A stretch of 64,000 nt of DNA from assembly GCF_055900595.2 (NCBI RefSeq), contig NZ_CM148325.1. One strand, 5' to 3'. A program made the position numbers and the translations under genes. Of this stretch, positions 12,976 to 55,774 are shown one piece after another. The notes beneath the pieces are model-generated. The model ran no database searches, was not told where the DNA came from, and saw only the letters and a program-made list of their open reading frames with translations. Numbering within the stretch: position 1 is the first letter of the stretch; every line of letters starts with the position of its first letter.

Positions 12976-12980
12976 CCACT

Positions 12981-13094
12981 TGCCGGATGCGGCGTAAACG
13001 CCTTATCCGGTCTACCGATCCTGCGCCCATGTGGGCCTGATAAGACGCGCAAGCGTCGCATCAGGCATCGTGTGCCGAATGCCGGATGCGACAT
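12981..13094. repeat. REP/BIME palindromic unit cluster
   Basis: GCCGGATGCGGCGTAAACGCCTTATCCGG…GCCTGATAAGACGCGCAAGCGTCGCATCAGGC…GCCGGATGCG; typical enterobacterial REP sequences between convergent fadA and fre. Confidence 0.8.
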
Positions 13095-13134
13095 AGATCT
13101 AAATGCCACTGTATAAAGTTTTAGTTGCCGTTCT

Positions 13135-13160
13135 TCCCGCCTGTCAGGGGCGGGTTTTTT
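13135..13160 (+). terminator. rho-independent terminator downstream of fadBA
   Basis: CCCGCCTGTCAGGGGCGGG stem-loop followed by TTTTTTAT. Confidence 0.7.
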
Positions 13161-13165
13161 ATATC

Positions 13166-13867: not shown

Positions 13868-13912
13868 GCGCTTTCTCTGTCGGATCGATAAATAGGGCAA
13901 AACAAACGCGCA

Positions 13913-23061: not shown

Positions 23062-23179
23062 AACGCCTCCAGCCTCATTACTTACCCGCACAAAATAGAA
23101 TTGTGCTGTACAAACGTCCAGTTTGAAAGAAGTTTCCTGCGAGGCGCTACGCAAAACGATCCTTAATTTTTATTATTTT

Positions 23180-23215
23180 ATCCCACAATATGAGACGTAG
23201 TTTATATTGTGGGAT
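23180..23215. promoter_or_regulatory. perfect 12-bp inverted repeat (ATCCCACAATAT-N12-ATATTGTGGGAT), candidate operator
   Basis: Arms at 23180-23191 and 23204-23215 are exact reverse complements; located about 60 bp upstream of the IclR-family regulator ATG. Confidence 0.5.
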
Positions 23216-23276
23216 ATATCACCTTTTCCCCACGTCATTATGTGGAACACTTCAGCAATATCATCAGGAGAAACGT

Positions 23277-24044
23277 ATGGCAGATACCTCTTCAACCACC
23301 GCTGGCGCACAAACGTTATTACGCGGGCTGGCGGTTCTTAATGCTGTTTATAACGGCTGCCATGACCTGAAAAGTATCGGCGAGTTCACCGGCACGACCC
23401 GGAGCACAACCCATCGTTTAGTCACCGTTCTGGTGGAACAACGCTACCTGCGCCACGTCCCAACGCAGGGCTACCAACTGGGCGCCAAACTGATCGAATT
23501 CGGTGCCAGAGCACTGGAAAGCACCTCGCTGTACGAAGTTGCGCTGCCCGTTTTGCAGCGTCTGGCCCGTTACACCCTGGACACCGTGCATCTGGGGATC
23601 GTTGAAGGCGGCGAAGTGCTGTATCTGGAGAAGATCAACAGTCAGCGTGGGCTGGAAATGCGCTCACGCCCAGGCCATCGCATGCCACTGGCAATCACCG
23701 GCATCGGCAAGGCATTGATCCTCAACCGAACAGAAGAAGAGTGGCGCACGCTGTTTAAGACCTGTGGTGATGAAACAAAACTGGGCACATTTATTCAGAA
23801 CATGCGTCGTTATGCCGCCAGTGGTTTTGCTTTTGATCTGGAAGAGAACGAGCCGACTATCCGTTGCGTTGCAGCGCCGGTTTACAACGCCCGGGATGAA
23901 ATTGTGGCGGCTATTTCTGTCGCCAGTACCACTACGTATATGTCACTGGCGCGTCTGGAAGAACTGGCACCTTACGTCAAATCCTGTGCAGAAGAGATAT
24001 CCGCTGAACTGGGCTGGGGTAAGCACGTCCACAAAAATAAATAA
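23277..24044 (+). CDS. IclR-family transcriptional regulator
   Basis: 255 aa from MADTSSTTAGAQTLLRGLAVLNAV…; N-terminal wHTH and C-terminal effector domain pattern of IclR/KdgR-like regulators; RBS AGGAGA upstream of ATG 23277. Confidence 0.75.
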   Translation: MADTSSTTAGAQTLLRGLAVLNAVYNGCHDLKSIGEFTGTTRSTTHRLVTVLVEQRYLRHVPTQGYQLGAKLIEFGARALESTSLYEVALPVLQRLARYTLDTVHLGIVEGGEVLYLEKINSQRGLEMRSRPGHRMPLAITGIGKALILNRTEEEWRTLFKTCGDETKLGTFIQNMRRYAASGFAFDLEENEPTIRCVAAPVYNARDEIVAAISVASTTTYMSLARLEELAPYVKSCAEEISAELGWGKHVHKNK

Positions 24045-24067
24045 ACCATGACTAAAGGAAACGGCTA

Positions 24068-25072
24068 ATGTCGGGAAACACCTCATTTATTGCCCTGGAC
24101 TGGGGAACGTCATCGCTTCGGGCATGGCGTTTTGGCGACTCACCCAATCCACAAGAAAAACGTGAATTCCCGTGGGGGATCATGAAATTACCCTCCCAGG
24201 CAGCAACACGTGAGGACGCTTTCCACGATACGTTTTTACGTGTCTGCGGCGACTGGCTGGCACAATCCCAATGCCCGGTTCTGGCTTGCGGCATGATCGG
24301 CAGTGCGCAAGGGTGGCAACCCGCAGCTTATTTACCTTGCCCGGTCACTCTCGAGGGTCTGGCAAAGCAGTTGACGCCTGTTATCTACCAGCAGCAGACA
24401 ATGCTGCACATCATTCCCGGCGTGATTAAAGAAGGTGAAATGCCCGAAGTGATGCGTGGCGAAGAGACACAAATCTTCGGTGCTATCTCGATGGAACCGG
24501 CCCTGCAAAACGCGATCCGCCAGGGTATGCCTGTGCTGATTGGCTTACCTGGCACACATGCGAAATGGGCGGTAGTTGAAAACAACACCATTACCGATTT
24601 CCGAACCTTTATGACAGGCGAGTTATTTGATGTTTTATCCCGCCATTCGATTCTCGGTGCCACCATGCGTTCGGGAGATGAACCGCACTGGGATGCCTTC
24701 ACCCATGGGCTGAAATCAGCACAAGAGCATCATCAGACCGGATTATTATCGACGCTGTTTTCGACCCGTTCGCGCCTGCTGACCAGTAATCTTACGCCGT
24801 CCTCGCAGGGGGATTACCTTTCAGGATTACTGATAGGCCATGAATTATGCGGTCTGGCATCCAGTTTGCTACGTGATTTACCCGCCACAACACCGATCGC
24901 CTTAATCGGTAGCGCCACTCTGAACAGCCGCTATTCACAAGCATTCAGCCACGTTTTTCCCGACAGACAGCTACACGCCATTCCTAATGCCACTGAACAG
25001 GGGTTATGGCGAATCGCCCACGCTGCCGGGCTACTCTCCACCAACGCCAGGGAATGTACTCATGCCATTTAA
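24068..25072 (+). CDS. 2-dehydro-3-deoxygalactonokinase-like sugar-acid kinase (DgoK family)
   Basis: 334 aa; blocks shared with E. coli DgoK as recalled: IALDWGTSSLRAW, MRGEETQIFGA, PGTHAKWAVV, DFRTFMTGELFDVLSRHSILGA, SGLLIG. Confidence 0.7.
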   Translation: MSGNTSFIALDWGTSSLRAWRFGDSPNPQEKREFPWGIMKLPSQAATREDAFHDTFLRVCGDWLAQSQCPVLACGMIGSAQGWQPAAYLPCPVTLEGLAKQLTPVIYQQQTMLHIIPGVIKEGEMPEVMRGEETQIFGAISMEPALQNAIRQGMPVLIGLPGTHAKWAVVENNTITDFRTFMTGELFDVLSRHSILGATMRSGDEPHWDAFTHGLKSAQEHHQTGLLSTLFSTRSRLLTSNLTPSSQGDYLSGLLIGHELCGLASSLLRDLPATTPIALIGSATLNSRYSQAFSHVFPDRQLHAIPNATEQGLWRIAHAAGLLSTNARECTHAI

Positions 25073-25691
25073 TACGCTTTTGCAAAAAACCGGGTTAGTC
25101 GCCATTTTACGCGGCGTGAAACCGGATGAGATTGTCGCCATCGGTGAAAAGCTGTATGCCGCTGGATTTCGCCTGATTGAGATTCCCATGAACTCGCCGG
25201 AGCCGTTGCAAAGTATCAGTTTACTGCGCGACGCCCTGCCTAAGGACTGCCTGGTCGGAGCCGGAACTGTGCTTTCGGTGGAGCAAGTCGTCGCGGTTAA
25301 AGAGGCTGGAGGCCAGATTATCGTAATGCCGCATTGCGATACTGCGGTGATCCGTCGTGCCCGTGCGCTGGGTATGTATTGTGCGCCTGGCGTCGCTACG
25401 CCCACCGAAGCTTTTGCTGCCATTGAACATGGCGCCAATGCCATCAAGCTGTTCCCGGCTGAACAAATTACGCCTGAAGTCACCAAAGCCTGGCGTGCGG
25501 TTATTCCACAATCCGTTCCGATGTTACCGGTTGGCGGTATCACTCCAGACACAATGGCGCGTTATCTGAGCCACGGCGCAAACGGCTTTGGCCTCGGTTC
25601 TGCGCTATATCGCCCCGGCATGACGCCAGAGCAAGTCTATGAAAATGCAGTACTGTTTATGAACGCATGGAACAATTTAAATAGCAAATAA
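25062..25691 (+). CDS. KDPG/KDPGal-type class I aldolase (DgoA/Eda family)
   Basis: 209 aa from MPFNTLLQKTGLVAILRGVKPDE…; LIEIPMNSP, GAGTVLSVEQV and VGGITPD blocks parallel DgoA; overlaps the kinase stop by 11 bp. Confidence 0.7.
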   Translation: MPFNTLLQKTGLVAILRGVKPDEIVAIGEKLYAAGFRLIEIPMNSPEPLQSISLLRDALPKDCLVGAGTVLSVEQVVAVKEAGGQIIVMPHCDTAVIRRARALGMYCAPGVATPTEAFAAIEHGANAIKLFPAEQITPEVTKAWRAVIPQSVPMLPVGGITPDTMARYLSHGANGFGLGSALYRPGMTPEQVYENAVLFMNAWNNLNSK

Positions 25692-25715
25692 CTGATAAAT
25701 AAGGATATAAAAGCA

Positions 25716-26690
25716 ATGATAAAACATCTTACCTTACCGAAAAAAATGGCTGCAATGGTACTTCTTGCCGGCGCTGCCCTCAGCACTGCGCCTGTGCAGG
25801 CGGCCTCCTGGCCAACCAAACAGATCGAGTTAGTCGTACCCTACGCGGCCGGAGGCGGTACGGATCTGGTTGCCCGTGCCTTTGCTGATGCCGCCAAAAA
25901 CCATTTGCCCGTCAGCATCGGGGTTATCAATAAACCTGGCGGTGGCGGCGCTATCGGCCTGAGTGAAATCGCCGCTGCCCGCCCTAACGGTTACAAAATG
26001 GGTTTAGGCACGGTTGAACTGACCACCCTTCCCAGTCTCGGAATGGTGCGTTTTAAAACCAGCGACTTTAAACCCATTGCCCGTCTGAATGCGGATCCGG
26101 CTGCTATCACCGTCCGTGCCGATGCACCGTGGAATAGCTATGAAGAATTTATGACTTACGCCAAAGCGAATCCCGGAAAAGTACGCATTGGTAACTCAGG
26201 CACCGGAGCAATCTGGCATCTGGCGGCAGCTGCACTGGAAGACAAAACGGGCGTGAAGTTTTCTCATGTCCCATATGACGGCGCAGCCCCTGCCATTACA
26301 GGCCTGTTAGGCGGGCATATTGAAGCGGTTTCCGTAAGCCCAGGTGAAGTTATCAATCATGTGAAAGGCGGCAAGCTGAAGACACTGGTAGTGATGGCGG
26401 ATGAACATATGAAAACCATGCCTGACGTACCGACGTTAAAAGAGAAAGGCGTTGATCTCTCCATCGGCACCTGGCGCGGCCTGATTGTGTCGCAAAAAAC
26501 GCCGCAGGATGTGGTGGATGTTCTGGCAAAGGCAGCAAAAGAGACGGCTGAAGAGCCTGCATTCCAGGATGCGCTGCAAAAGTTGAATCTCAACTATGCA
26601 TGGCTTGATGGTGCCAGCTTCCAGACCCAAATCAACGAGCAGGAAAAGTACTTTGACGAGCTGCTGACTCGCCTGGGCCTGAAAAAATAA
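25716..26690 (+). CDS. tripartite tricarboxylate transporter (TTT) periplasmic substrate-binding protein, TctC/Bug family
   Basis: 324 aa; signal peptide MIKHLTLPKKMAAMVLLAGAALSTAPVQA; family assignment from overall sequence character and the adjacent TctB/TctA-like genes. Confidence 0.7.
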   Translation: MIKHLTLPKKMAAMVLLAGAALSTAPVQAASWPTKQIELVVPYAAGGGTDLVARAFADAAKNHLPVSIGVINKPGGGGAIGLSEIAAARPNGYKMGLGTVELTTLPSLGMVRFKTSDFKPIARLNADPAAITVRADAPWNSYEEFMTYAKANPGKVRIGNSGTGAIWHLAAAALEDKTGVKFSHVPYDGAAPAITGLLGGHIEAVSVSPGEVINHVKGGKLKTLVVMADEHMKTMPDVPTLKEKGVDLSIGTWRGLIVSQKTPQDVVDVLAKAAKETAEEPAFQDALQKLNLNYAWLDGASFQTQINEQEKYFDELLTRLGLKK

Positions 26691-26706
26691 TCCCGAGGTA
26701 CGGTCG

Positions 26707-27213
26707 ATGAACACAAAACAGTCTGTTGCTCAACTCGCCGTACCGCACCGCAAGCGCCTTTCATCCACTGTGGTGGTGGCGCTGTTACTTTGTGTGGTTG
26801 CTGGCGCGGTGATAATTAATGCCGCTGATTTTCCAGCAACTGCCATTGAAACGGATCCCGGTGCAAGTGCCTTCCCTACTTTCTATGCCTGCGCTCTGAT
26901 TGTGCTCGCTGTCTTACTTGTGATACGCGATCTTTTGCTGGCAAAACCAGTCCCTTGCGCCAACGCACAGGAAAAACCGGCATTCAGGAAAACGGCAACA
27001 GGAATTGCGGCAACCGCGTTTTATATCGTGGCAATGAGCTACTGCGGTTATCTCATTACTACTCCTGTTTTCCTCATCGTCATTATGGCATTGATGGGCT
27101 ACAGGCGATGGGTACTCACACCGGGTATTGCGCTGCTGTTAACGGCAATCCTCTGGTTGCTGTTTGTCGAAGCGTTACAGGTGCCATTGCCTGTCGGCAC
27201 ATTTTTCGAATAA
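26707..27213 (+). CDS. TTT small membrane subunit (TctB-like)
   Basis: 168-aa hydrophobic four-TM-type protein between the TctC-like and TctA-like genes. Confidence 0.6.
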   Translation: MNTKQSVAQLAVPHRKRLSSTVVVALLLCVVAGAVIINAADFPATAIETDPGASAFPTFYACALIVLAVLLVIRDLLLAKPVPCANAQEKPAFRKTATGIAATAFYIVAMSYCGYLITTPVFLIVIMALMGYRRWVLTPGIALLLTAILWLLFVEALQVPLPVGTFFE

Positions 27214-27225
27214 CAGGGGCCTGCA

Positions 27226-28716
27226 ATGTTTGAAAGTGAACTTTTAACTCAGGGGTTTTCGACATTACTCAGTAATCCTCAGGCGCTGCTGTTTGCCACG
27301 TTTGGAGTGATGCTGGGTATTATGATTGGCGCTCTGCCTGGCCTGACAGCGACCATGGGTGTGGCGATTTTGCTGCCTTTCACCTACGGCATGGAGCCTG
27401 TTTCTGGCTTGTTGATGATTTGCGGTGTCTTTTTTGGTGGTGTGTATGGTGGTTCTATCACCGCAATTTTGCTCAAAATTCCCGGTACGCCTGCCGCCGC
27501 TGCCACCGCCATTGACGGATATGAGCTGACGAAGCAGGGAAAAGCCGGGCTGGCGTTAAGTGCCGCCACGTTCTCTTCTTTTAGCGGTGGAACGCTCAGC
27601 ATTATCGTATTGATGTTTCTCTCTCCGGTACTTGCCAGTTGGGCGTTGAAATTTAGTGCCTCGGAGTCCTTCGCCCTGGCAACCTTCGGACTGAGCATTA
27701 TTGCCAGTATTTCCGGTGAGTCACTGATTAAAGGGCTGATTGCCGGGGTTGGCGGATTGCTTATCGCAACGATAGGCCTTGATCCAATGGGCGGTTTTCC
27801 ACGCTTTACAGGTGGATTTGTGGAGCTGATGAATGTGCCATTTATCCCGGTGATGATTGGTTTATTTGCTGCTTCAGAAGCATTCCGCTCTATGGAGCAA
27901 AACCAGCAAATTCGTCAGGGGGCGAAGGTGGCTATCGGCAGTCTGTTACTGCCCTGGCAAACACTACGCCGCATCGCATTAACCATTTTGCGCTCATCAG
28001 GATTAGGGGTTTTTATCGGCATGATCCCCGGTGCGGGGGCAGATATTGCAGCTTTTGTTGCCTATAACGAAACTCGTCGTTTCAGTAAGACGCCTGAAAA
28101 CTTTGGTAAGGGTGAGATTAAGGCGGTGGCCTCCTGTGAGGCAGGCGCGAATGGCTGCACCGGTGGCGCATTGTTACCTATGCTGACGTTGGGGATCCCA
28201 GGCGATGCGGTAACTGCCATCATGCTGGGCGCGTTAACGTTACAAGGGATGCAGCCAGGCCCACTTATGTTTACCGACCACGGCGATATGGTTTATACGC
28301 TGTTTGTCGGCATGATCTTTTGTTACTTCATGCTGCTAGTTCTTGGACTGCTCTCTTTGAAAGTCATCGGTAACGTGGTGAAGATCCCCGGCAATATTCT
28401 CACGCCGATGATCCTCGCACTTTGTGTGGTCGGGACTTATGCGCTGAACAATAGCCTGTTTGATGTTGGCATTATGCTGATTGCAGGCGTGGTGGGCTAT
28501 TTCATGCAAAAAGGGGGGTATCCGGCATCACCCGTAGTGCTGGCATTGATTATGGGGCCAATGGCGGAAAGTAATTTTCGCCGTGCGCTGTCGCTTTCTG
28601 GTGGGTCACTCGACTTTCTGTATACCCGACCGATAACCCTGGCATTGCTGACACTGGCAGCCTTTACGCTACTGACGCCAATAATACGCAAAATTATGCG
28701 CTTACGGCGTCAGTAA
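27226..28716 (+). CDS. TTT large permease subunit (TctA-like)
   Basis: 496-aa polytopic membrane protein; glycine-rich blocks typical of TctA. Confidence 0.7.
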   Translation: MFESELLTQGFSTLLSNPQALLFATFGVMLGIMIGALPGLTATMGVAILLPFTYGMEPVSGLLMICGVFFGGVYGGSITAILLKIPGTPAAAATAIDGYELTKQGKAGLALSAATFSSFSGGTLSIIVLMFLSPVLASWALKFSASESFALATFGLSIIASISGESLIKGLIAGVGGLLIATIGLDPMGGFPRFTGGFVELMNVPFIPVMIGLFAASEAFRSMEQNQQIRQGAKVAIGSLLLPWQTLRRIALTILRSSGLGVFIGMIPGAGADIAAFVAYNETRRFSKTPENFGKGEIKAVASCEAGANGCTGGALLPMLTLGIPGDAVTAIMLGALTLQGMQPGPLMFTDHGDMVYTLFVGMIFCYFMLLVLGLLSLKVIGNVVKIPGNILTPMILALCVVGTYALNNSLFDVGIMLIAGVVGYFMQKGGYPASPVVLALIMGPMAESNFRRALSLSGGSLDFLYTRPITLALLTLAAFTLLTPIIRKIMRLRRQ

Positions 28717-28770
28717 TTGATATCGCTCCCCGACGTTGGGGAGTATGAGACTGATGACAAACGCTAAATT

Positions 28771-28868
28771 GCCTGATGCGCTGCGCTTATCAGGCCTACC
28801 ACAGAAATGCAATATATTGAATTTGCATGCTTTTGTAGGCCGGATAAGGCGATCACGCCGCATCCGGC
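28771..28868. repeat. REP palindromic unit pair
   Basis: GCCTGATGCGCTGCGCTTATCAGGCCTAC … GTAGGCCGGATAAGGCGATCACGCCGCATCCGGC. Confidence 0.75.
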
Positions 28869-28895
28869 ATGAACAAAGCACACGTTAACAACAAT

Positions 28896-28930
28896 CGGAA
28901 TGCTCCCCTAAGCCAGGGAGCGTTTTTTAT
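28896..28930 (+). terminator. rho-independent terminator after the transporter operon
   Basis: GCTCCCCtaagccaGGGAGCG followed by TTTTTTATTT. Confidence 0.55.
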
Positions 28931-29691
28931 TTCAGCAGACGACGCGCCGCTTCCACCACGATTTTCACCGCATGGCTTTCGGTTTGTTTCATCGTCTCAG
29001 CATTCGGGATCTCTTGTTGGGTACGATTGACGATAACGCCCGCCACCATACCGGCACGAAGGCCCTGGCTTGCACACATGGTCAGCAGGGTTGCAGATTC
29101 CATTTCATAGTTCATTACGCCCATCGCCTGCCACTCTTCCATAGAACCTTTAAAGTGACGAACTACGCGACCAGAGTAAGTATCGTAACGTTCCTGACCT
29201 GGGTAGAAGGTATCAGAAGAAGCCGTCACGCCAACGTGAGTCGTCGCGCCGATGGATTTCGCAGCCTCAACCAGCGCGGTCGTACATTCGAAATCAGCGA
29301 CAGCCGGGAATTCCAGCGGTGCGAAGTGCAGGCTCGCGCCATCCAGACGAACAGACGCCGTGGTAACCAGGACATCGCCAACATTAATATGCGGCTGAAT
29401 AGCGCCCGTTGTACCGATACGCAGGAAGGTGCGAATGCCCAGCTGTGCCAGCTCTTCAACTGCAATAGAGGTAGACGGGCCGCCGATACCGGTAGAGCAG
29501 ACGATAACAGGTTTACCATCCAGCTCTGCACGCCAGGTGGTGAATTCGCGGTGAGATGCCAGCTTAACCGGCTTATCCATCAGCGCGGCGATCTTTTCCA
29601 CACGATCCGGGTCGCCAGGGACGATGGCAAGCGTAGCCCCTTGTAAATCGTTTTTAGTGAGGCCGAGATGAAAAACATCAGACTTGGACAT
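28927..29691 (-). CDS. udp: uridine phosphorylase
   Basis: 253 aa from [31 protein letters not shown]…; the ORF-track first codon is a TTG two codons upstream. Confidence 0.92.
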
Positions 29692-37564: not shown

Positions 37565-37572
37565 AAAATAAT

Positions 37573-37602
37573 GTCGGATGCGGCGTAAACGCCTTATCCG
37601 AC
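37573..37602. repeat. REP palindromic unit
   Basis: GTCGGATGCGGCGTAAACGCCTTATCCGAC between convergent rhtB and rhtC. Confidence 0.7.
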
Positions 37603-37625
37603 TTACTCTGATGACGCGTCTGGCA

Positions 37626-45736: not shown

Positions 45737-45841
45737 ATGCCGGATGCGGCGTAAACGCCTTACCCGGCCTACATGACATTGCAATTTATTGAATCTACAT
45801 GATTTTGTAGGCCGGATAAGGTGCGCAGCACCGCATCCGGC
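45737..45841. repeat. REP palindromic unit pair (BIME-like)
   Basis: GCCGGATGCGGCGTAAACGCCTTACCCGGCCTAC … GTAGGCCGGATAAGGTGCGCAGCACCGCATCCGGC in inverted orientation. Confidence 0.8.
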
Positions 45842-45845
45842 AACG

Positions 45846-51469: not shown

Positions 51470-51602
51470 TATGGATTGCCTGTAAAGTTCATCGCTTTCT
51501 GCTTTCTATCATCGCAGGAGAAGACGTAAAAGCAAGCGTTTAGCGACTCTTTATGAAGTCTGAACCGCCCCGGGTTTCCTGGAGAGTGTTTTATCTGTGA
51601 AC

Positions 51603-52493
51603 TCAGGCTGCCAGATCATCGTTTCCGATGGAAGCATAATAAGCTTTTTCTGCTTCTGCCGGAGGAGTATGGCCCAGCCTTCCCAGCAATCGTCGATTGT
51701 TATACCAGTCCACCCACGTTAGTGTGGCCAGTTCCACTTCTGCACGGTTTTTCCAGCTCTTACGGTGTATTACCTCCGCTTTGTAAAGACCATTGATGCT
51801 CTCAGCCATCGCGTTGTCATACGAGTCGCCTGTACTCCCTGTTGATGCCAGTAATCCGGCTTCTTTTAGTCGCTCCGTATAGGCCAGTGACACATACTGA
51901 GAGCCTTTATCGCTGTGATGGATGGTGCCAGACGGACGACGGGCCCACAACGCCTGCTCCAGCGCATCCAGCACGAATGTCGTTTCCATAGACGATGAGA
52001 CCCGCCACCCCACGATGTATCCGGCAAACACATCAATGATAAACGCCACATAGACGAAGCCCTGCCATGTGCTGACGTAAGTAAAATCAGCCACCCACAG
52101 CTGGTCAGGTCGTTCTGCCACGAACTGACGGTTTACGCGGTCGCCTGCGGCAACGGCTTTCCGGCTGATGGTCGTACGGACCTTTTTACCCCGGAGAACA
52201 CCGGCAAGTCCCATAACCGCCATGAGACGTGCCACTGTACATCTGGCCACCCTGATTCCTTCCCGTAACAACTGACGCCAGACTTTACGCACACCGTACA
52301 CCTGATGATTTTCATCGTATACGCGCTGTATCTCTCTCTTCAGCCAGTCGTCGTGCTGCGCACGGGCACTGCGTTTATCCGGATGATGTCGCTGTTGCTG
52401 ACAATGGTAATACGTTGACGGGGCAATATGCAGTTCGCTGCATACCGGTCCGACCCCGTACTGCTCACGCAGCTTATCCAGCAGTGGCATCAT
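51603..52493 (-). CDS. IS3-family transposase OrfB (DDE integrase core)
   Basis: 296 aa; rve-type catalytic region (…[24 protein letters not shown]…[10 protein letters not shown]…); 4-bp overlap with orfA consistent with programmed -1 frameshifting. Confidence 0.88.
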
Positions 52494-52816
52494 TTTTTCC
52501 AGAGGCGGTCGAACTCCGCCTTCGCAAAATAAGCGGAAGCCTGGCGAAGGATATCGTTACTGCGGCGCAGTTCACGATTTTCACGTTCCAGCTCTTTCAG
52601 ACGCTGACGTTCAGCGCTGGTGAGCCCACCATCACCGCCCCCGGTATCCCGCTCATGCTGGCGAACCCAGACACGCAGAGTCTCCGGCGTACAGCCAATC
52701 TTTGGAGCAATGGAACAAATTGCCGCCCACTGTGAGTCATATTCATCCTGACTTTCCAGAACCATACGAATCGCCCGCTGACGGACTTCGGGGGAAAAAC
52801 GAGTATTTTTAGTCAT
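52490..52816 (-). CDS. IS3-family transposase OrfA (HTH)
   Basis: 108 aa [61 protein letters not shown]…; matches the IS629 OrfA sequence as I recall it. Confidence 0.88.
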
Positions 52817-52970
52817 CCTGTTTACCTCTTTCTCAGGGAGTTTAGTCTCCAGGATTTCCGGGGCGGTTCAGTCTGAAAAATGAGGAATTGCTGCGAGTAT
52901 AACGCTTACACGTGGGGATTTATGTTTTGCTGGTAGTTTCGTGATCGGCACCTCGCGCCAGGATGGCTTT

Positions 52971-54449
52971 ATGCACTATCGCAATGTGGTTTGTTTGTTG
53001 TCTTGTTCGTTATTCTTATCCCCGGCATGGGGATGTCGGCTTTCCGCGCCTGAACATAATATTTACCAGAAACAGGGAAAAGGCGTGGTGTACCTGCGCC
53101 CTTATAAAGAAACAAATCTTTCTCTACCTGACGTGAATTACAAGAGTTTGCGTCGTTTACCTAATTTATTAATAGACGCAACAACACAAGATGAATGGAA
53201 TAAAGAACCACCTCTGACTGATCTAACAACTGACAACCTCTATGAGGGCGCACAAGCCTGGTATCCCCATTACTCCTGGCATAGCGATGGTCGCTATATC
53301 CTCTACGCGGGTGAAGTAGTGCAAAATCCTCACGACGCACCACCCGTCGATATCGCCTCATTCAAGGCATGGGGAGATTTTGCCGCGGATAAACACAGTC
53401 TCTATTTTGAAGGCAAGCGCACCGATAACAATGGCGGGGGAAATAGCTTAGATATCAAAACACTGCATCAGGTGGAATTCCGGCCTCCCTGGGATCCTGA
53501 CTTACTGGGGCTGATATTACGTGACGCTAATTTCTTGTATATCAATGGGCATCGCCTCGCAGATCCCGATAGTTTCCGTGTGCTGGCACAAAAGTCATGG
53601 GATCAGCGAGGAAAGTTTTCTACCGCGTTTAATCCCTGTGTGGCTATGCCATTTGGCCCCTGGGATACCCTGGCTCGTACACGGACCAAAATCCTGATCA
53701 ACGGCGAACAGCTTGATGCCGACCCGGACACCTTTTCCGTCGTGCGCTGGATGCCCGGCTCACTCTTGACCTGGCGTGATAAAAACGGGCTACAGCGTAA
53801 AGTCCTCGACAAGGAAAATCTGGCGTGGGATGAAGATTTAACAAAGCACTGTCTGGATTTTTCTCTGCTGGAAAAGAAAGTGTTCTGGCGTAAAGGGCCT
53901 GCTTGTAAACAGGAAGAATTACCGGGGCTCGATCCTGAACAGTTCCACCCCATCAGTGATGCTGTCGCCCAGTATCAGGATTCGCTTTATACCATCATCG
54001 AAACAGAGTCTGGTGACCGCAAGCTGGAGATCGTAAAACTTGATGATCCCAATCTTATTATCAACAAACGTTTCAACGCCGGGAAACGCCATGGCTATTT
54101 ACTTACGCGTGCCGAAGGGTGGCCAAACCATTCCGGTTTACACGTGTTTGAATCTGACGGACCGCTGATCTTACTGGATAACCACTCTCCGGATGAACGC
54201 GAAGCCCATCTTGATGACCATCCCTTTTTGCGCAGATGGTATGCCCGCGATAACCGCTACGTTTACAGCTTTGATGGCGCGCAGCTCTGGCGATACCGCA
54301 CTGCGGATCCGAAACAAGTTCGCTTAATCTGGAAGGAACAACATTCGGGATATGGCTACGGGGTAAATTACAAAACGGGATATCTGGACGGAAAAATTAC
54401 CGATGACGGCGAATTTATTCCTGCCCCGCGCAATGAGGCGACAAAATGA
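52971..54449 (+). CDS. secreted repeat protein, DKNYY-like, paralog 1
   Basis: About 492 aa from ATG 52971 (MHYRNVVCLLSCSLFLSPAWGC…); an in-frame GTG at 52941 is an alternative start; repeated D-x-x-x-LY-x-x-G blocks (DKHSLYFEGKRT, DANFLYINGHRLADPDSF, GEQLDADPDTFSVV, DNRYVYSFDG). Confidence 0.7.
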   Translation: MHYRNVVCLLSCSLFLSPAWGCRLSAPEHNIYQKQGKGVVYLRPYKETNLSLPDVNYKSLRRLPNLLIDATTQDEWNKEPPLTDLTTDNLYEGAQAWYPHYSWHSDGRYILYAGEVVQNPHDAPPVDIASFKAWGDFAADKHSLYFEGKRTDNNGGGNSLDIKTLHQVEFRPPWDPDLLGLILRDANFLYINGHRLADPDSFRVLAQKSWDQRGKFSTAFNPCVAMPFGPWDTLARTRTKILINGEQLDADPDTFSVVRWMPGSLLTWRDKNGLQRKVLDKENLAWDEDLTKHCLDFSLLEKKVFWRKGPACKQEELPGLDPEQFHPISDAVAQYQDSLYTIIETESGDRKLEIVKLDDPNLIINKRFNAGKRHGYLLTRAEGWPNHSGLHVFESDGPLILLDNHSPDEREAHLDDHPFLRRWYARDNRYVYSFDGAQLWRYRTADPKQVRLIWKEQHSGYGYGVNYKTGYLDGKITDDGEFIPAPRNEATK

Positions 54450-55774
54450 AAGGTCAAATAATCACTGTTGCACTCATCCTGTTGGGGCACATATTTCTGA
54501 CGCCTGCTGTACAGGCCATAGGGTTCGACTATTACAATGATCACGGTGTTATGTCTTACGGTAAAGGTTATGGGGAGGATGAGAAAATCATTGCCCAATT
54601 TCCGAAGATGAACAGAGCCGATTTACGCCTTGTGACAAATATATCCAGGGAGCGGGAGTTGGTGGAAGGCTATATACCCACCGATGAAATAAGCATAAAA
54701 AATGAGGAATACCACTGGGTGACAGACGGCCGCGTTATTCTCTGGCGTGGCAAAATCGTTAGCAATCCACCGGGAACACCCACTGTCGATATTGCCAGCT
54801 TTCAGGCTATGGGCCGCTTCGCGGTCGATAAATATAGCCTCTATTTTGACGGACAGCGCACCGAAAGTAATAGCGGCGCGTCACGTGTTGATCTGGCGAC
54901 ACTAAAAGCTATCGAAGGTAACTCTACCACGCTGGTGGATAGTAAAAATCTCTATTTGTCCGGTCGACGTCAGGGGAGCAGCAGTAATGTTACTGTATTA
55001 GAAAAAAGATGGTGGGGTATTAATCCACGTCTTATGAGTGTAAACAGAAATTTGTATTCCAATGATCTGCTTATCCGCAGTGGGCAGAATATTTATTTAA
55101 ATGGCGTTCACCTTACGGCGAATGCAGACTCATTTGAGATAATTCGCTGGATACCTCATTCACTGCTGGTTTTTCGCGACAATAAGGGTATGCATCGTTA
55201 TCCCTTTGGGCAATTGTCTGGCAAAGCGATACCCGTAGATGATGACGTCTCTTTTGAAGTAGGGGAAAGTCGCGTTCGCTGGCGTAAACAGCTCACGTCC
55301 GACCGTCAGTGGAGCCAGTGGATAGACCTACCAGGTATTGAACCTGAACAATTTCATCTGATTACTGACAATATTGCGCAGTATAAAGATCGGCTGTATG
55401 TAACAAAATTATCGACTTTTGGTGAAGACCAGCTTGAAATAATCCCGCTGGATTTGCCAGACCTGGTCATTGATCACTCATTTAATCGCGGCAAACAGCA
55501 TGCTTACTTTATCCACCAATTACGGTCACGCAAGAGCGTGCAAATTATTCCAGTTAACGGCCCGCTAACTAAAAACGATCGCTTTGCTTATGACGATCGC
55601 AATGTTTATACATGGACCGATACAGAGGTAAGGATTACACCCTCCCCCTGCCCAGCGAAAACATACGTCAGAGAAAAGAATGTCCGTGAAATTCATAATA
55701 GCGACATTATTATTCCGGTGACGGAGGAATCGTGCCGGAACGCAGCAGCAGACGGGCAAACTTTGAAGCCCTGA
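54446..55774 (+). CDS. secreted repeat protein, DKNYY-like, paralog 2
   Basis: 442 aa; signal peptide MKGQIITVALILLGHIFLTPAVQA; start overlaps upstream stop (ATGA); collinear with paralog 1 (PTVDIASFQAMGRFAVDKYSLYFDGQRT vs PPVDIASFKAWGDFAADKHSLYFEGKRT; PEQFHLITDNIAQYKDRLY vs PEQFHPISDAVAQYQDSLY). Confidence 0.7.
   Translation: MKGQIITVALILLGHIFLTPAVQAIGFDYYNDHGVMSYGKGYGEDEKIIAQFPKMNRADLRLVTNISRERELVEGYIPTDEISIKNEEYHWVTDGRVILWRGKIVSNPPGTPTVDIASFQAMGRFAVDKYSLYFDGQRTESNSGASRVDLATLKAIEGNSTTLVDSKNLYLSGRRQGSSSNVTVLEKRWWGINPRLMSVNRNLYSNDLLIRSGQNIYLNGVHLTANADSFEIIRWIPHSLLVFRDNKGMHRYPFGQLSGKAIPVDDDVSFEVGESRVRWRKQLTSDRQWSQWIDLPGIEPEQFHLITDNIAQYKDRLYVTKLSTFGEDQLEIIPLDLPDLVIDHSFNRGKQHAYFIHQLRSRKSVQIIPVNGPLTKNDRFAYDDRNVYTWTDTEVRITPSPCPAKTYVREKNVREIHNSDIIIPVTEESCRNAAADGQTLKP

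Follow-up and report, generated by a model that had tools for sequence, protein, structure and literature searches.

The REP repeats of Escherichia coli (Higgins, Gilson, Bachellier) are extragenic hairpin units that occur in many copies. Three types are distinguished, y (35 nt), z1 (29 nt) and z2 (37 nt), each with a GTAG tetranucleotide in front and an AA/GC bulge (PMC8266576, PMC3333891). In BIME-1 (also RIB or RIP), a y and a z1 unit are joined by a long L linker, often with an IHF site, and the element occurs as a single copy; in BIME-2, y and z2 units stand in tandem with short linkers. Every other combination is classed as atypical (PMC8266576, PMC3333891, PMC1187871). The length of BIME-2 varies between strains (PMC3333891, PMC1187871), and the presence or absence of BIME-1 among isolates is also on record (PMC1187871; Bachellier et al., 1997, as reported in PMC1187871). 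Genome-wide, about 60% of REPs lie at convergent and 1% at divergent junctions (bioRxiv 10.64898/2026.03.23.713779). The REP and BIME types, the preference for convergent junctions and both kinds of variation have been described since the 1990s.

The related REPIN-RAYT system (Bertels and Rainey, PMC3116915; TnpA_REP, PMC3333891) has two inverted REPs and a spacer, which form a long hairpin, and shows long vertical inheritance with occasional gain or loss. TnpA_REP needs the GTAG and the bulge and cleaves at CT dinucleotides (PMC8266576, PMC3333891); its locus is single in most E. coli (PMC3333891). From this literature, REPs would be non-autonomous repeats, spread and reshaped by a single-copy TnpA_REP (RAYT) and by recombination between copies. 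Here, four REP sites in the chromosome of a divergent E. coli strain are compared with these systems.

Results

The Window and Its REP Units

The window, a stretch of 64,000 nt (contig NZ_CM148325.1 of assembly GCF_055900595.2), is part of an E. coli chromosome of a divergent lineage. Its core genes share ~95%–97% identity with those of K-12 and other mainstream E. coli; identities of 99% or more are reached by only eight genomes in the collection. According to Rfam and the annotation of a matching record, the order begins rrnA, hemG, trkH, pepQ, fadBA, fre, ubiD, tatABCD, ubiBJE and rmuC; a six-gene insert, udp, metE, rhtB/rhtC, recQ, corA and yigE/uvrD follow, and the window continues with xerC, dapF, cyaA, hemCDXY and glmZ. 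The gene names come from the annotation of a record that is 100% identical over the queried parts.

An earlier note had placed near-identical REP units at four intergenic junctions of this stretch. This claim is borne out by motif, Hamming and nhmmer matches and by the annotation, which confirms the neighbors as fadA/fre (site 1), a TctA-type permease gene/udp (site 2), rhtB/rhtC (site 3) and yigE/uvrD (site 4). The 34-nt motif of the note matches at 12982–13015 (plus strand, one mismatch), 28835–28868 (minus, two), 37573–37606 (plus, three) and 45739–45772 (plus, one), four sites against an expectation of zero, with no match in shuffled sequence. The REP scan that the note had proposed, a Hamming comparison with y, z1 and z2 consensus forms, detected six full units in the window and none in each of 50 shuffles, and the lengths fit the published types. 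nhmmer adds an indel-bearing partner unit at 45807–45842, which brings the full units to seven with zero to four mismatches to their type consensus, and a truncated unit at 13081–13094. Since the z1 consensus was typed from the z1 unit of site 2 itself, the match of that unit is not independent; independent support is given by its length and by its identity to the z1 unit of the BIME-1 between fdhE and yiiF.

No REP site beyond the four was found in the window by the same scan. In the syntenic 50 kb of K-12, the Hamming scan located REPs solely at the three sites common to both, so that three of the four window sites are syntenic with K-12 REPs; these were called by the window's own scan, as the feature table of NC_000913.3 lists no curated REP features. 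Rfam at its gathering threshold gave no match at the REP sites, and the window holds no RAYT (TnpA_REP) gene. The sequence CATCAGGC at 13911, in the fre-ubiD spacer, was considered as a REP fragment and rejected, as it has no palindrome and no further match.

All units are intergenic and fold as bulged hairpins (−13 to −22 kcal/mol, z −3.3 to −7.2). When the GTAG strand is folded, the AA/GC bulge appears as a 2 × 2 internal loop in the y and z2 units. In their lengths (35, 29–30 and 37 nt), GTAG, bulge, extragenic position and many copies the units resemble the described y, z1 and z2 REPs; they differ in a 36-nt y variant at site 4 and in two mutated GTAG tetranucleotides. GTAG is intact in five of the seven full units and reads GTGG at 13031–13034 (z2 of site 1) and GTAA at 37603–37606 on the minus strand (site 3). 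These two are decayed members of the family, and could no longer be substrates of TnpA_REP because it requires GTAG (PMC8266576).

The four sites are ordinary, canonical E. coli REP/BIME repeats. Every site lies at gene 3′ ends, where hairpins are expected, and the matches could in principle be unrelated G+C-rich terminator palindromes that are alike by chance. The probability of this is negligible and the data already contradict it: 34-nt matches with at most three mismatches occur where none is expected, megablast with the site-1 query hits a median of 17 places per genome, and no REP hairpin is followed by a T-run, separate terminators being present.

Several other differences from related genomes were observed in or near the window. 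At the fre-ubiD spacer (13868–13912), 49 nt of the window are absent from the best-matching record, NZ_CM128605.1, in which the two genes are annotated as overlapping. Because K-12 also has a spacer there (45 nt), it is NZ_CM128605.1 that looks deviant, through a deletion or an assembly error. A 1,310-bp insertion sequence of the IS3 family (51561–52870) separates lptM from the gene that follows, and the otherwise identical NZ_CM128605.1 does not have it. The element carries rve and HTH_Tnp_1 ORFs, an ALIL frameshift pseudoknot, terminal inverted repeats of ~25 nt starting TGAACCGCCCCGGG and a 3-bp target duplication, GTC; a REP-targeted insertion was rejected here, with no REP nearby. Between lptM and cyaY, the window has two adjacent hypothetical genes (52941–55774; 502 and 442 aa) that K-12 lacks and that have only marginal Pfam matches to the DKNYY family, under the cut-off. 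In N96, 2013C-4282, WL297 and MFDS1019527, relatives of the window strain, an insertion of ~2 kb that the window does not have lies between ysgA and metE and carries a small hypothetical gene and a tssD (Hcp) gene, which in N96 contains an internal stop.

Site 1 Is a BIME-2 between fadA and fre

The 190-nt spacer between fadA and fre occupies exactly 12976–13165, and REP sequence covers only 12981–13094 of it. A 35-nt y unit (12981–13015; minus strand, the strand reading 5′-GTAG; two mismatches to y) begins 6 nt past the fadA stop codon and forms a hairpin of −19.6 kcal/mol (z −4.1). After a 15-nt linker, a 37-nt z2 unit follows in inverted orientation (13031–13067, plus strand; two mismatches to z2; −21.9 kcal/mol, z −4.95). 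The head of a truncated y unit, GCCGGATGCGACA (13081–13094, minus strand, detected by nhmmer), forms the fre-proximal edge and has a degenerate counterpart in K-12. The predicted intrinsic terminator of fadBA, CCCGCCTGTCAGGGGCGGG with its T-run (13136–13162, plus strand; hairpin 13136–13154), lies downstream of the REPs, which therefore belong to the fadBA 3′ UTR.

Site 1 is a BIME-2 of one y/z2 pair and a truncated y unit, with alternating y and z2 units, short linkers and a copy number that varies between strains. In K-12 the spacer is 380 nt long and contains three y/z2 pairs, as against one pair in 190 nt here, and in a sample spread over 5,450 records the site falls into length classes of ~580–590 nt, ~670–680 nt and the K-12 type. 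Compared with the described BIME-2 elements, site 1 has only one complete pair besides the truncated y. Under permissive settings, the y and z2 units also match the model of naRNA4/REP325 (RF02564) with 41 and 36 bits (E 3e-6 and 5e-5), scores that fall below the gathering score of 59.5. Site 1 differs from naRNA4/REP325 in being another locus, with one pair rather than a 12-unit array.

Sites 3 and 4 Are Shared with K-12

Site 3 is a single y unit with GTAA in place of GTAG (37572–37606, minus strand; hairpin z −7.2), which lies 8 nt beyond the stop codon of rhtB; K-12 has the identical unit. Its stem contains the compensatory pair GTCGGAT…ATCCGAC, in which a double substitution keeps the pairing. 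Site 4 consists of a y unit (45738–45772, minus strand), an L-like linker (45773–45806) with ATTCAATAAATTG at 45782–45794 on the minus strand, and a y-like variant of 36 nt found by nhmmer (45807–45842, plus strand), which ends 3 nt from the uvrD stop codon. Because both units are of the y type, site 4 is classed as an atypical y-L-y BIME and not as BIME-1. It is kept in K-12, and sites 3 and 4 are conserved between lineages that are ~4%–5% apart.

Site 2 Is a Complete BIME-1 between Two Terminator Hairpin Copies

At site 2, a complete BIME-1 of 158 nt (28744–28901, plus strand) is composed of a left flank, z1, L, y and a right flank. The z1 unit (28770–28799, minus strand) measures 29–30 nt, in keeping with the published length (PMC8266576). 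The 35-nt L linker (28800–28834), as defined in PMC3333891, contains ATTCAATATATTG at 28810–28822 on the minus strand, which resembles the IHF consensus with one mismatch, and the y unit (28835–28869, plus strand) is 35 nt long with one mismatch to y. The conserved outer flanks measure ~27 and ~32 nt. The L linkers of sites 2 and 4 match WATCAANNNNTTR at 12 of 13 positions and at a homologous position, against a background of 0.8 such matches per kb.

With a y unit and an inverted z1 joined by a long L linker in a single copy, site 2 is a canonical BIME-1. Over z1, L, y and the flanks, it can be aligned along its whole length with the fdhE-yiiF BIME-1, and like BIME-1 elsewhere it is a single element of ~158 nt that is present or absent among isolates. 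Unlike the fdhE-yiiF element, site 2 sits between two copies of a host terminator hairpin. Copy 1, GCTCCCCGACGTTGGGGAG (28725–28743, plus strand), is cut off from the T-run by the BIME-1. Copy 2, GCTCCCCTAAGCCAGGGAG (28902–28928, plus strand, including CG and the T-run), is 74% identical to copy 1; it alone adjoins the T-run and is the sole terminator predicted in the tctA-udp spacer.

The 3′ end of udp (28927–28934) is one codon longer in cluster-bearing strains (…CTG CTG AAA TAA) than in K-12 (…CTG CTG TAA), and its stop codon sits in an A-run complementary to the T-run of the tct terminator. As the udp stop lies inside this A-run, the K-12 breakpoint falls in the last udp codons.

The rmuC-udp Cluster Is Old and Is Not Marked by REPs

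The segment absent from K-12 extends from ~23157 to ~28930. Its six genes (23157–28716) encode an IclR regulator, a 2-dehydro-3-deoxygalactonokinase-like protein, a KDPGal-aldolase-like protein and a TctC/TctB/TctA tripartite transporter, and look like a unit for the uptake and catabolism of an acidic sugar derivative. The cluster is present in single copy in 1,452 of 5,426 complete E. coli genomes, with ~96.3% identity to the window, and 73% of the genomes are without it. Its divergence equals that of the flanking udp-metE core DNA (~96.2% identical). In a scan of species-representative genomes, the six genes also turned up in E. whittamii, Buttiauxella warmboldiae, Klebsiella spallanzanii and K. 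indica, again with rmuC on one side and udp on the other; in Phytobacter massiliensis, where the rmuC probe found nothing, their neighbors are ubiE and udp. The cluster is thus syntenic in five other species of four genera, and protein identities drop with phylogenetic distance. Synteny across species and a divergence like that of the core indicate that the cluster is an old syntenic block and that K-12 has lost it.

The aldolase gene of the cluster is a pseudogene in IAI39. E. coli HS-02 has an unannotated 1.4-kb remnant of the cluster (2593–4003 of L011) between rmuC and a C-terminally truncated udp; it is 74%–79% identical to the iclR and kinase genes, compared with 93% for the E. whittamii copy, and represents either a pseudogene tract in decay or an allele from another source.

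The earlier note had proposed that the cluster has been resident long enough to acquire host REPs, or else that the REPs mark its junction. Synteny and divergence uphold the long residence, while a REP taken alone says little about time. For the second proposal, that the REPs are the target or the scar of integration or deletion of the cluster, one can point to the position of the BIME-1 close to udp, at the end of the segment missing from K-12, and to the enrichment of BIMEs in strain-specific “loops” (PMC1187871). A marker of the att type would show a repeat at both edges or at the empty site, and neither is seen: there is no REP at the rmuC-proximal edge, and comparison of the junction with K-12, which lacks the cluster, revealed none in its udp-rmuC spacer. 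Furthermore, the BIME-1 itself lies within the strain-specific segment, ~1,435 of the 1,452 cluster-bearing genomes are REP-free at the udp edge, and the cluster holds the same position in other genera, where the tctA-udp spacer is a short terminator without REPs. The data already contradict a junction marker, which is very improbable.

Filled and Empty Alleles at tctA-udp

Presence/absence variation of the BIME-1 is found at tctA-udp. Of the 1,452 E. coli genomes with the cluster, 17 carry the element, and ~1,435 with the same flanking genes do not. The empty allele is a clean empty site, a spacer of 33–34 nt that consists of one hairpin, GCTCCCCGAAGTTGGGGAGCG, and the T-run. A BIME-1 with exactly the same left junction occurs in E. 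whittamii. Its sequence is 92% identical to the window copy, closer than any of the E. coli paralogs (at most 88.8%), and the flanking genes are 90.5%–97.4% identical to those of the window (about 93%). The shared junction and this pattern of identity indicate that the E. whittamii and window copies are orthologous and that the insertion took place before the species split. As the E. whittamii copy is truncated on the right, it does not show the original right junction.

The two hairpin copies bracket the element in the filled alleles, and in two genomes they form a perfect 19/19 repeat. Copy 2 of the window keeps the ancestral AAG, while copy 1 has a lineage-specific change, indicating that the duplication of the hairpin is older than this change. 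The empty site of N96, a close relative, shows the hairpin loop specific to the lineage, and udp of N96 is identical to udp of the perfect-repeat strain. Deletion between the hairpin repeats would leave an allele of this kind.

The filled spacer (28717–28926) is identical between the window and 2017-02-2CC (L012) except for one extra T. The tctA and udp flanks of these two strains differ by 4.2%, and 8.9 differences would be expected in the spacer, where none is observed (p = 1.4e-4). An identical spacer between diverged flanks suggests either a recent exchange of a short tract or constraint. No donor for the right flank of the BIME-1 and the variant hairpin was found in E. coli; both are unique to tctA-udp in the same 17 genomes. 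At fdhE-yiiF, filled and empty alleles differ by a replacement of ~20 nt beside a T-run, with no direct repeat, and target duplication as a general signature of BIME-1 was rejected on this basis.

The preferred reading of the tctA-udp alleles is an old insertion followed by repeat-mediated losses. The BIME-1 would have entered a terminator that the old, syntenic cluster already had, at a time before E. coli and E. whittamii separated, and most E. coli would then have lost it, probably through deletion between the flanking hairpin copies. As to polarity, the empty sites of mainstream E. coli could instead represent the ancestral state, and recombination would then have moved the filled allele. 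In its full form, this alternative makes the BIME-1 a comparatively recent insertion with a target duplication of ~19 nt, spread by homologous recombination, also to or from E. whittamii. The perfect hairpin repeats of two genomes, the matching empty site of N96, the identical spacer between diverged flanks and the REP-free spacers of distant genera would all suit such an event. It is nevertheless considered unlikely. The E. whittamii copy has diverged by 8%, like the flanking genes, so any transfer must be ancient; the hairpin duplication predates the change in copy 1; the fdhE-yiiF pair shows no target duplication; and the IS200/IS605-type chemistry proposed for REPs leaves no target repeats (PMC3333891).

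The duplication of the hairpin around the BIME-1 is the sole detail left unexplained. The alleles form a series, from the empty terminator through perfect 19-nt repeats and diverged repeats to the right-truncated ortholog of E. whittamii. That this series records entry of the BIME-1 between the stem and the T-run, with duplication of the whole hairpin, and exit by precise excision through slippage between the two copies is a speculative and quite improbable proposal. Duplication of a target hairpin falls outside the current TnpA_REP model.

Discussion

In the window, REPs occupy 4 of 10 convergent junctions and none of 53 tandem or divergent junctions (Fisher p = 3.5e-4), in agreement with the published genome-wide pattern. 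At such junctions, the REPs would be transcribed into the 3′ ends of both converging mRNAs, where G+C-rich bulged hairpins may block 3′-to-5′ exonucleases. The same hairpins may act as leaky terminators and dampen read-through of the converging transcripts. Units lie within 15 nt of the stop codons of fadA (6 nt), rhtB (8 nt) and uvrD (3 nt), and a REP at most 15 nt from a stop codon is reported to stall terminating ribosomes (Liang et al., 2015, as described in PMC12306157); stalling may likewise occur at these three genes. As for the DNA itself, the y/z2 array is a candidate gyrase site, by analogy with the y/z2 arrays described as targets of DNA gyrase (Espeli and Boccard, 1997, as described in PMC8266576), and the L linker is a candidate IHF site. 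These putative roles in stabilization, termination, stalling and gyrase or IHF binding are inferred from the literature on other REP loci, where effects on neighboring transcripts have been published (bioRxiv 10.64898/2026.03.23.713779) and, as recent work emphasizes, vary with context.

The elements might also be purely selfish, REPIN-type repeats lodged in harmless spots, with no regulatory role for fadA, fre, udp, rhtB, rhtC, yigE or uvrD. Sites 2 and 4, each with two inverted REPs that fold into a long hairpin, have the REPIN form; the loss of the BIME-1 from ~99% of cluster-bearing genomes indicates that it is dispensable, and the copy number at site 1 drifts. Like REPIN-RAYT systems, the elements show long vertical inheritance with occasional gain or loss; unlike them, the window has no RAYT gene and its sole inferred event is ancient. 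A purely selfish nature is conceivable, though somewhat improbable, given the conservation of sites 3 and 4 across the two lineages, the identity of site 3 despite its dead GTAG and with pairing kept through a double substitution, and the published effects of other REPs on their neighbors. Taken as a whole, an account that combines the REP/BIME identity of the four sites, functions drawn from the literature and an old BIME-1 insertion with later losses is very probably correct.

The significance of these sites beyond correct annotation is small. It would be a mistake to take the REPs for a sign of where the rmuC-udp cluster ends, or the cluster for a recent island, since it is an ancient syntenic block that was lost in K-12-like strains. 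The tctA-udp spacer offers matched filled and empty natural alleles, which could be used to study the effect of a BIME-1 on two converging transcripts and the repeat-mediated excision of such an element.
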